Positions 24,001 through 27,000 of a DNA stretch of 64,000 nucleotides are shown here, piece by piece. How positions within the stretch are numbered: position 1 is the first letter of the stretch; each line of letters begins with the position of its first letter. Made by a program: the position numbers. Location of the stretch: IMG/VR virus record IMGVR_UViG_2718218360_000008; one strand, 5' to 3'. The DNA is from a virus. Its lineage: Duplodnaviria > Heunggongvirae > Uroviricota > Caudoviricetes.

Positions 24001-27000
24001 GGCAGTTCCTGACCGGAAATCGGCAGGAGCATATTATCCTCAATCTCAGCCATGTCTTCGCCATTGACGTTGGTATTGTCAGAGCTGGCTGGTTTGTCCT
24101 GAACTGAGGGGGAAGGCGCTATAAATATCATTGTGATGCCATCTTCCCCGCCTTTTTCATAGCGGTTGCAGAATTCAGTATCGAACACACCTTCAGGCGG
24201 CAGGTCATTAACAATGGGCAAATTCACGCGAACAGGTTTTTTGAAATCCTCTTCGTCAAATCCAGCATCGTCCATTGCGACAACACCCCGTGATATTGCA
24301 ACCGATAATTTTTTTGCTGTGCGCCAGTAAAAACCGCCTTTAATCCCAAGGCGTTTTCTGACTTTGTCATTTTTGGCTTCGTAATACAGTGCAATTTCTT
24401 CTTTATCAGTGCTCATTGATAAACCTCATAACTATTTTAAGGTTGTACGAATCCCTGCCATTGCTGGCATGCTTAATCAACGGGTATGGCGTTAATACGG
24501 CTGGCGGGTTATCCAGCCGGTATTTCGTTATTCAGGTACAGCGATACTTTGTTTAACGGGAGACATTCACCGGAAATTTTTTGCTCGTCTCTTGCCTGAT
24601 GGCAGGATTCTTTACTGGCATAAATTCCGGTAATCACATTCTGTGGCTCACCTGTTATAAGAAAAACCGTCATCATCAGTGCAAACGCTGAACTCACTGC
24701 TGCCCTCCGAAAATGCCAAGTTCAAGAAGGGCAATTCTGGAGAGTATGGAATTATCATTGAGAAGATAAGGCTCATATTTTCTCATCCTGATGGCGTCTT
24801 CAGTAAACTCCCGGTTACTGAGCAGAATACCAATATTAAAACACCCTTCAGACGTATTAACGTTTGGTAGTGACGTTTCCATTATCGCGTCCTCAACAAT
24901 GAATTTTGTGATGTGGTGCCTGGTGCCTCCAGGTGACGTTAACCAGTTAACAATTAACGCCGGAATACAGAATCACCCATAACGCTGTTTTTAGCTTTAA
25001 CTGTTCCGCGTGCGCTCAGCCGCATTCACCACATCACAAAATTCACTTTAAAAAGGGCGGCAGAGCAGTCACGGAGTAAAACTGATACCGCCAAACGTCA
25101 CCAGAAAATTGATAACAGAAGGCGTTGCAGCGGGGTTGTCACTTAAGCGTATGGTCAACCTGACAACCCGGTGTCCTCAACGGGGAAGAAATAACCCCGC
25201 CATACTTACCGCCGCACCATTTCGCGGGTTGCCACAACCGGAAGCGCACGGTCGACGAAAATTTAACGACAGGCTATCTATGAACCAGCTACCTCGCCGT
25301 GCGCTTTCGCGTTATGGTCTGACTTTTCAGGGAAATATCCTTTCAGTAAACTGTCAGTGCCGGATGCTCACCCGCGTCCGGCGCACGCACTCCACCTCAC
25401 CCGTGGAGAACTACTTAATTACCAACCTTAGCTTCGTTGGTTAGCTATTAACGCGGGTATGTAATCATTCTGGCAATGCTTAATGCCGCTGCTTTTTCCA
25501 GATTGGTGATATCCTGCTCCAGAGCGGACAGTTTTTCAGCCTGCTTAGCCCTGGCTTCATTGACCCATTTCAGATCCTGCGCTGCATTAATTTTCTGGCG
25601 CATCCACTCATAAAGTTCATCATCGGTATAGTCTGGTGCGATGATGACGGGTTCTCGTTTCTGCATACTGATTCCTCGCGGTGCTGTTTCGCTTATCAGC
25701 CGTTAGATTTTGCCGAGCTGGAAAGCGCCTGTTTAAATTCGTTGAAGCTGAGAGCTTCTTCGCCGTCGGCAAGACCTTCGAAGTATTCTTCATAAGCCTT
25801 TTCCATGATTGTGTCGAAATCCATATCACTCACCTGAGTTTCTTTCCAGCCAGCGACGGGCACCATTTTCGGTTTTAAACGTTTTGCTTTTGGTATACGT
25901 CATCGCGGTGAACGTGCCGTCCTGGTTGGGGAACACGCCACATACCAGAGATTCGCTGTTGCCAAGATCGATAGTATCCATGCTGACCTCATTTCCCCTT
26001 AACGCCGGGTAGCGGAACTGTTTGCTGAGAACACCGTGCGGTGTCTTGATGGGTGGTAATTTAGTTTTCTCATGAATGTTGGTCAAGTATTTTTAATGAG
26101 AAAGCTCAATATTTAATGCAAAATAAAGCCAATACATTGAAATGTAAGGCTTTAAAATTTGTGAAGGGGGTTACTGATGTTTGTTACGTTTGCGAGCTTC
26201 TAGTAGCTCGGTGAATAGGCGATTAAAATTCTCAACGCGGGCACGGAGTTCGCTGATTTGTGCTTGCTGCTCTGATTTTGGAAGTGCGCGATACAATCGC
26301 AACATCTCCAACTCATCTTCCGATAAGTCTAAGGCGCTGTTGAGTGCAACTGGTGGATCTGGTGTTTTATCCTCGTCACCAAACAGTATCCAAGTTGGTG
26401 AACATTGCAATACCTCAGCCAGGCGATGCAAATTTTGCCCGCGCGGGGCTGTATGGTCGCTTTCCCATAGTGAAATTGATGAGCCAGATACGCCAGCGGC
26501 TTTGCTTAAATCGTTTTGACTTAAACCAACCTGTTTGCGTCTTTCTCTAATTCGTTGACCTAAAGTTTTCTCGTTCATATTTAGATATCTTAATCACCCT
26601 TGACTTGAGATTCCTTGAGTGATTACTATTGAGAAAACTCAACTTTGGAGGGGTGATGTTTAAATCAGACGTAATTAATTTTTATGGGACGAAAGCCAAA
26701 GTAGCGAAAGCTGCTGGTGTTGATCCATCTGCTGTTTCTCAATGGGGGGAACTGGTTCCTGAAGGTCGCGCGATGCGCCTGCAAGAGGCATCCGGCGGGG
26801 AACTTCAGTACGACCCCAAAGTTTATGACGAATATCGTAAGGCAAAGCGGGCGGGGCGGTTGAACAATGAAAATCACCCCTGAACAGGTTTGTGAGGCTC
26901 TGGATGCCTGGGTATGTCGACCAGGAATGACACAGGAGCAGGCGACGATATTAATCACGGAAGCATTCTGGGCTCTGAAAGAACGCCCGAACATCGATGT

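Follow-up and report, generated by a model that had tools for sequence, protein, structure and literature searches.

The dicBF operon of the Qin prophage of Escherichia coli K-12 encodes two inhibitors of cell division: the small RNA (sRNA) DicF, which acts on ftsZ mRNA, and the protein DicB, which acts through MinC (PMC5069750, PMC6832061, PMC10448788). Four orthologues of DicF have been reported from E. coli O157:H7 (PMC10448788, PMC5069750). Here, we examine a locus of this type in a 64,000-nucleotide (nt) stretch of Caudoviricetes DNA, the IMG/VR record IMGVR_UViG_2718218360_000008. This whole stretch is called the window below, and all coordinates refer to it. A first-pass annotation had proposed a minus-strand module of the Qin type at 24509-26086, with a DicA-like repressor upstream of it. 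We find ydfA, ydfB, ydfC, DicF, dicB and a YdfD-like open reading frame (ORF) on that strand and in the proposed order. With high confidence, the region is a complete, bona fide dicBF operon, with which the early-left (PL-like) operon of a lambdoid prophage begins; the host is an E. coli of the Shiga toxin-producing (STEC) type.

The identity of the locus follows from its RNA and its proteins alike. A scan with the Rfam DicF model (RF00039) gave a score of 76.7 bits, well over the gathering threshold of 48 (E = 3.6e-15), with model positions 1-52 of 52 matched at 25055-25106 on the minus strand; the sRNA itself is 53 nt long (25055-25107). It lies between ydfC and dicB and ends in a terminator hairpin followed by the U-tract TTTTT at 25050-25054. 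No difference from K-12 (100% identity) occurs in the entire segment 25003-25110, which covers DicF, the U-tract and the first part of the spacer that follows. The dicB allele (24694-24882, minus strand) encodes 62 residues, all of which (1-62 of 62) are matched by Pfam family PF05358 with 115.7 bits against a gathering threshold of 27 (E = 7e-34), and its product is RefSeq WP_000450222.1, "cell division inhibition protein DicB". These Rfam and Pfam matches are so strong that chance cannot account for the module.

The remaining genes complete the picture. Upstream of dicF on the same strand are ydfA (25826-25981; 51 residues, 49 of them identical to K-12; Pfam DUF1391, E = 9e-28), ydfB (25696-25824; 40 of 42 residues identical) and ydfC (25448-25666; 70 of 72 residues identical), all three carrying these names in RefSeq. 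The start of ydfB is one base past the stop of ydfA, and its product matches no Pfam family. The ydfD-like gene (24509-24697, minus strand; 62 residues) belongs to Pfam PF07358 (DUF1482; 53.8 bits against a gathering threshold of 25, E = 2e-14), and its GTG start codon and the stop codon of dicB share the sequence GTGA, the counterpart in K-12 being ATGA. The DicA-like repressor gene (26171-26578, minus strand; 135 residues; RefSeq WP_001003379.1) encodes a Pfam HTH_3 domain (E = 1e-16), and a DicC/Cro-like regulator (26656-26883, plus strand, with the start as in RefSeq WP_000476986.1; Pfam P22_Cro, E = 1e-17) is transcribed divergently from it. A repressor gene followed by ydfA-ydfB-ydfC-dicF-dicB-ydfD on one strand, together with a divergent cro-like gene, is the arrangement by which a Qin-type dicBF operon is recognized. 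All ORFs of the module are intact.

A mechanical list of minus-strand ORFs gives a somewhat different view of the same DNA, as it contains ORFs of 135 codons (26171-26578), 86 codons with a TTG start (25826-26086), 56 codons (25696-25866), 72 codons (25448-25666), 62 codons (24694-24882), 62 codons with a GTG start (24509-24697) and 814 codons (21972-24416). The DUF1391 match is the 51-residue core of the 86-codon ORF, and the 42-residue YdfB is nested in the 56-codon ORF. Another 42-codon ORF, at 24648-24776, was considered for YdfB and rejected, as it overlaps dicB out of frame. The right limit of the module originally placed at 26086 has to be moved, because this is the TTG of the over-extended 86-codon ORF, whereas both K-12 and RefSeq have ydfA begin with the ATG at 25981. 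The -35 hexamer of the predicted operon promoter actually starts with the base at 26086.

The module as such is already known, and RefSeq annotates all its genes except dicF. In a megablast search of window positions 24400-26650 against 5426 complete E. coli genomes, parts of the module were matched in 4648, so that the present locus is one more copy of a locus found in most E. coli genomes. One module locus, in strain SCPM-O-B-7615 from raw milk, is 100% identical; its RefSeq annotation lists a helix-turn-helix (HTH) protein, ydfA, ydfB, ydfC, dicB and a DUF1482 protein, and has no dicF feature. Our analysis locates this sRNA gene, which the standard annotation of the locus omits.

The first-pass annotation had proposed two checks, the Rfam scan for DicF and an alignment with the K-12 Qin dicB operon, and both bear it out. 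The alignment also shows that the resemblance is confined to sharply delimited parts. The two loci agree in gene order, orientation and gene lengths, in where the promoter lies and in the overlap of the dicB stop with the ydfD start. DNA identity is 94-99% from about 26045, in the ydfA leader, to about 24830, near codon 17 of dicB, and this block comprises ydfABC and both untranslated spacers. On both sides of it identity falls to only about 50%. At the protein level, 74 of 137 residues are identical between the two DicA-type repressors (54%), 53 of 85 between the DicC proteins (62%), 36 of 62 between the DicB proteins (58%) and 28 of 63 between the YdfD proteins (44%). Hence, the term Qin-type is justified for the gene order and the central 1.2 kb, whereas allelic differences set apart the immunity region, YdfD and the last two thirds of DicB, toward its C terminus. 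This mosaic points to a near-invariant core, most of which is untranslated RNA, flanked by repressor, dicB and ydfD alleles that are exchangeable. The alleles found here are common in STEC, including O157:H7: the dicB-ydfD segment is matched at 99% identity or more in 145 records that include O157:H7, is 100% identical to a segment of O157:H7 strains, and is covered over at least 80% of its length in 1017 genomes. In the phage records named PPompW, the module is 94% identical.

The low identity of the flanking alleles could mean that DicB and YdfD have diverged in function, the former no longer acting through MinC and the latter no longer causing lysis, and that only DicF retains its K-12 activity. 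Besides the 36 of 62 and 28 of 63 identical residues, the drop in DNA identity from about codon 17 of dicB favors such a loss. We nevertheless regard it as unlikely. The Pfam DicB match extends over the full length of the protein, and the length and position of DicB as well as the overlap of its stop codon with the next start are conserved. Furthermore, the residues common to three divergent DicB alleles are retained in the protein encoded here, and this allele is maintained in more than 1000 genomes. Some points do weigh against a fully working operon of the K-12 kind. The action of DicB on MinC and ManYZ and that of YdfD on IspG are extrapolated from K-12 proteins of 58% and 44% identity; the expression and processing of DicF and DicB in the source strain, and the inducibility of the prophage, are predictions from the DNA; and the assignment of operators to the repressor, described below, rests on three short palindromes. 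The proposal that the module inhibits host cell division through ftsZ mRNA and MinC is therefore well founded for DicF, whose sequence is identical to that of K-12, and is probable by homology for the divergent DicB.

It might also be argued that the module, like that of K-12 Qin, is a cryptic remnant undergoing decay, and that it represents a domesticated toxin locus of the host instead of a working early function of a phage. The K-12 copy is indeed cryptic, and a 2016 paper reported no matches to DicB or DicF in the phage genome databases of that time (PMC5069750). The surroundings of the module make this improbable. In K-12 Qin, exo, xis and int are pseudogenes interrupted by IS2, whereas the copies in the window are intact. 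The exonuclease gene (21972-24416, minus strand) encodes a full-length protein of 814 residues with Pfam Exonuc_VIII and Rv2179c-like domains, its K-12 counterpart being a truncated pseudogene, and xis and int follow downstream at 20551-21681 according to the RefSeq annotation of matching loci. Besides int, xis and exo, the prophage contains O-like and P replication genes, hok/sok, a RelE/HTH pair, RusA, a Q antiterminator (PF03589), a DNA methylase, a sialate-esterase-like protein of 648 residues, a holin, a lysozyme and a terminase. The prophage around the module thus appears complete, unlike the decayed Qin element. In addition, the same module is present in 38 deposited phage records, including mEp460, HannyBb, Tritos and the PPompW phages; its occurrence in sequenced phages shows that it is not confined to cryptic elements. 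We conclude that the locus displays the Qin module in its ancestral form, before decay, within an STEC prophage that appears to be complete.

DicF is preceded by a spacer (25108-25447, minus strand) that constitutes the structured, untranslated DicF precursor. It is 95-99% identical to its K-12 counterpart and folds better than shuffled sequence (z-score of -3.4), with a long predicted hairpin at about 25231-25317. A DicF species of 190 nt made by RNase III has been published (PMC10448788); its expected 5' end computes to about 25244, which is within this hairpin. By analogy with K-12, where it has been shown (PMC10448788), and given the near identity of the precursor, processing by RNase III as well as RNase E to the 53-nt DicF would be expected here as well.

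Opposite to this spacer, on the plus strand, runs a 111-codon ORF with a TTG start (25109-25444), which could be a real gene that has escaped annotation. It is also open in K-12, and synonymous changes are modestly enriched in it (24 of 57, where about 26% would be expected). The same excess, however, is found in one frame of the sense strand, 3 of 37 distinct variants contain internal stops, and the ORF combines its TTG start with an arginine-rich composition that is unlike that of a protein. As it also overlies a structured RNA precursor, the ORF is probably spurious, and a genuine gene at this position is very hard to reconcile with the data.

Between dicF and dicB is a second spacer of 172 nt. 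In the minimum free energy (MFE) fold, it forms a domain (24898-25047, minus strand; the dicB leader domain) that is closed by a perfect outer helix of 21 base pairs (bp), in which 25047-25027 pairs with 24918-24898. The helix encloses hairpin A (25024-25007), hairpin B (24961-24935) and hairpin C (24933-24919), all of which are reproduced by the MFE fold, and a pseudoknot between 25003-24997 and the loop of hairpin B is possible in this model. The outer helix is almost certainly a known RNase III site, because PMC5069750 gives, citing Faubladier et al. 1990, a 72-nt form of DicF with a 3' end made by RNase III, and the position of this end, 25036, is halfway along the 5' strand of the helix.

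The core fold of the leader domain resembles that of the STnc100/PasD sRNAs. Both have the outer helix, hairpin A with its bulge and C-U-N-N-G-C-G loop, hairpin B, the invariant strands GGUGAA and UCACC, and a hairpin C of the form CCNGG-AGGCA-CCNGG. In a permissive Rfam scan, the match to the STnc100 model (RF02076) was below the gathering threshold (39.8 bits against 47, E = 1e-6), and so were those of the homologous leaders of K-12 (34.4 bits), phage P7 (43.0 bits) and Shiga toxin (Stx) phage 75/02 (32.9 bits). The leader differs from the sRNAs in that it has no terminator of its own, there being no T-run after the domain, and the dicB ATG is 33 nt downstream. Its outer helix is also longer, 21 bp compared to about 8 bp in the sRNAs.

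Copies of the domain are found elsewhere. The leader is 82-84% identical to the sequence directly upstream of tciA in P7 and D6 and about 81% identical to the sequence directly upstream of a gene annotated as kil in Stx phage 75/02; copies were mapped at 2501-2616 of locus L005, 2498-2696 of L006 and 2501-2621 of L007. An alignment of six copies revealed the invariant strands GGUGAA, UCACC, GGAGGCAC and GGCAC as well as compensatory changes in the helices. Scanning viral contigs for these strands yielded at least 120 loci, which, together with those collected earlier, gave 104 distinct copies for analysis. As a MAFFT alignment misplaced gaps in hairpins A and B, pairing was analyzed with an anchored script. 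Across the 104 copies, the outer helix has 30 different 5' strands, and its paired run averages 8 bp. The C-U-N-N-G-C-G loop of hairpin A is retained; most copies have a CCCC/GGGG stem below it and those of the dicB type a GCGG/CCGC stem, a fully compensatory change. For hairpin B, 37 different stems have a mean run of 7.7 bp compared to 4.1 bp for shuffled sequence, and the pairing of the linker after hairpin A with the hairpin B loop has 36 variants with 6.4 bp compared to 4.1 bp; the search for the best helix biases all these values toward pairing, and the shuffled control ignores kinship between the sequences. The leader domain is real as a structure, and the pairing between the hairpin A linker and the hairpin B loop is a likely pseudoknot. 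In the viral contigs L013, L049, L107, L018, L026, L060 and L091, we observed two or three domains of the STnc100 type, usually less than about 1 kb apart, although those in L107 extend over about 9 kb.

Two classes of copies can be distinguished. In the sRNA class, which corresponds to STnc100/PasD and lies after the Q gene, the domain is followed by its own terminator 45-60 nt downstream. In the leader class there is no terminator, and an ORF begins 33-42 nt downstream, which encodes DicB, Kil, a Rha/Ash protein or the TerB-like TciA. The idea that the leader is specific to inhibitors of cell division was rejected, as it also precedes the Rha/Ash regulatory protein and the TerB-like protein. 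Upstream of the domain, leader-class loci of lambdoid type have a DicF-like terminator hairpin with variable 5' and loop sequences, and P1-type phages have transfer RNA (tRNA) genes in this slot. Such DicF-slot hairpins were seen in L006 (about 2440-2500), L095, L096, L118 and L124; they look like sRNAs and share the base of the terminator (GGCGG...CCGCCCUUUUU) with DicF, from which their 5' and loop sequences differ. The Rfam DicF model did not reach E = 0.01 in L006, and the other four were compared by local alignment score only. This suggests a family of sRNAs in the DicF position with different seed sequences.

The ban operon of P1, P7 and D6 offers a further comparison. There, the leader domain stops 41 nt short of the tciA start, tRNA genes stand in the position of DicF, and both TciA (TerB-like) and TciB are unrelated to DicB. 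Approximately 100 nt of the spacer that precedes DicF (25131-25227) are 80% identical to a P7 sequence (L005 1092-1189) located between the ban operator and the tRNA genes. Together with the match of the leader, this means that the P1-type ban operon shares two non-coding blocks with the dicBF operon. We found no mention of dicF and tciA together in the literature searched.

As to the role of the leader, one idea is that it resembles the put RNAs of phage HK022 and renders RNA polymerase resistant to terminators. Such a function would suit an operon that has no N-like gene and contains the intrinsic terminator of DicF upstream of dicB, and the leader is conserved and has several stems, as a put-like RNA might. 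However, BLAST found no similarity between the leader and HK022 putL or putR, and scanning the early region of HK022 with Rfam produced no match to the STnc100 model. Moreover, the domain lies downstream of the DicF terminator and not upstream of it, and in its sRNA form it is itself followed by a terminator. In view of the absent putL/putR similarity and the absent STnc100-like match, we consider put-like antitermination extremely improbable; a literature search on putL-type antitermination in prophages returned nothing. As a tentative proposal, for which we would claim a minority share of the probability, the leader domain would give the operon a third functional RNA, one of STnc100/PasD type that resides in an mRNA and is bounded by an RNase III helix. 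It is possible that RNase III releases it as a separate folded RNA, or that it acts in cis as a leader that sets the stability or translation of the next early gene; in the latter case, the gene concerned could be dicB here, kil in 933W-like Stx phages, Rha/Ash elsewhere, and tciA in P1, P7 and D6. If the leader is functional, the dicBF operon would have a second structured RNA, through which it would be connected with both the STnc100/PasD sRNAs and the ban operon of P1. No description of the domain was found in the searchable literature, whose coverage is incomplete and does not extend to the original dicF papers of the 1990s; bounded by its RNase III helix, it may be the only part of the module that is new.

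A promoter scan identified a single good promoter-like site upstream of the operon, TTGACC-17-TAAATT (26086-26058, minus strand), which occupies the same alignment position as TTGACC-17-TAATCT in K-12. It is bracketed by two operator-like sites of the pattern TGAGAAARCTCA, at 26097-26108 and 26061-26072. An operator-like palindrome, TGAGAAAACTCA (26630-26641), is situated in the intergenic region between the repressor and cro-like genes, beside a rightward promoter-like site. When at most one mismatch is allowed, the TGAGAAARCTCA palindrome has only three sites in the window, all of them at the two promoters that flank the repressor gene. Operators would be expected to have such a layout, and we regard the three palindromes as putative operators of the DicA-like repressor. 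In Pfam, this repressor has the HTH domain alone and no peptidase or cleavage domain. It is thus like K-12 DicA, which lacks the part cleavable through RecA and whose repression is lifted by the antirepressor Rem or through spontaneous switching (PMC10448788). Further along the window, on the plus strand, an IsrK RNA (30035-30108) and a C4 antisense RNA (30134-30217) are directly upstream of a gene with an ORF6N domain (30270-30818). This layout resembles an immI-type antirepressor module, and one may speculate that it relieves the non-cleavable DicA-like repressor.

Taken together with the K-12 literature, the layout suggests the following mechanism. The DicA-like repressor would bind the operators that bracket the operon promoter and keep the operon silent, and since it has no cleavage domain, derepression would require an antirepressor or spontaneous switching, as it does in K-12 (PMC10448788). 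The ydfABC-dicF precursor would then be transcribed and cut by RNases III and E, and the resulting 53-nt DicF, ending at its own intrinsic terminator, should base-pair with ftsZ, manX, xylR and pykA mRNAs as the identical sRNA does in K-12. Transcripts that read through this terminator would carry the 21-bp helix as an RNase III site and would permit translation of DicB, which, if the divergent allele behaves as its homologue, would recruit MinC to block FtsZ rings and would inhibit ManYZ. The YdfD-like membrane protein, presumably coupled in translation, may promote lysis, and exo, xis and int would follow downstream.

In lambda and in 933W-like Stx phages, the same slot of the early-left operon, between the repressor gene and exo/xis/int, is held by kil. 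Lambda Kil also causes a transient block of FtsZ-dependent division, but it is unrelated to DicB, and lambda lacks DicF and relies on N/nut antitermination. The annotated kil gene of Stx phage 75/02 is preceded by the same structured leader and by a DicF-like terminator hairpin.

The closest genomes to the prophage as a whole are those of STEC, serotypes O157:H7 and O103:H2, with 99.3-99.9% identity; no genome of the collection matches the whole window at 100%, and no stx genes are present between Q and the esterase-like gene. At the 100% identical module locus, the prophage adjoins ompW, and related deposited records bear the name PPompW. In the window, the prophage directly follows the tail/effector end of another lambdoid prophage. 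Approximately 14 kb of tail genes are duplicated (1-14200 and 48566-62800; 97-100% identity, offset of about 48.57 kb), from which it follows that the window contains two lambdoid prophages in tandem, the first represented by its end and the second nearly whole. Between the tail genes of the first prophage and the integrase of the second are genes for an 846-residue DUF4765 protein and a DUF1076 protein (15336-18723, minus strand), named after the RefSeq annotation of matching O157:H7 loci; this region is prophage-end cargo.

In the late region, after the Q and methylase genes, there is a cluster of small RNAs (36739-37139). It contains an STnc100 sRNA (36884-37076, plus strand; 140 bits) and, abutting it on the opposite strand, AgvB (37078-37139, minus strand). 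The cluster also includes a degenerate tRNA-like sequence, which scores 37 bits with Rfam, is not called as a tRNA by ARAGORN and is annotated as tRNA-Met by RefSeq at a near-identical locus. Finally, two toxin-antitoxin loci within the prophage occupy 30921-32029: hokD/sok, with sok at 30921-31095, and a minus-strand pair of a RelE/ParE toxin and an HTH protein (about 31348-32029).

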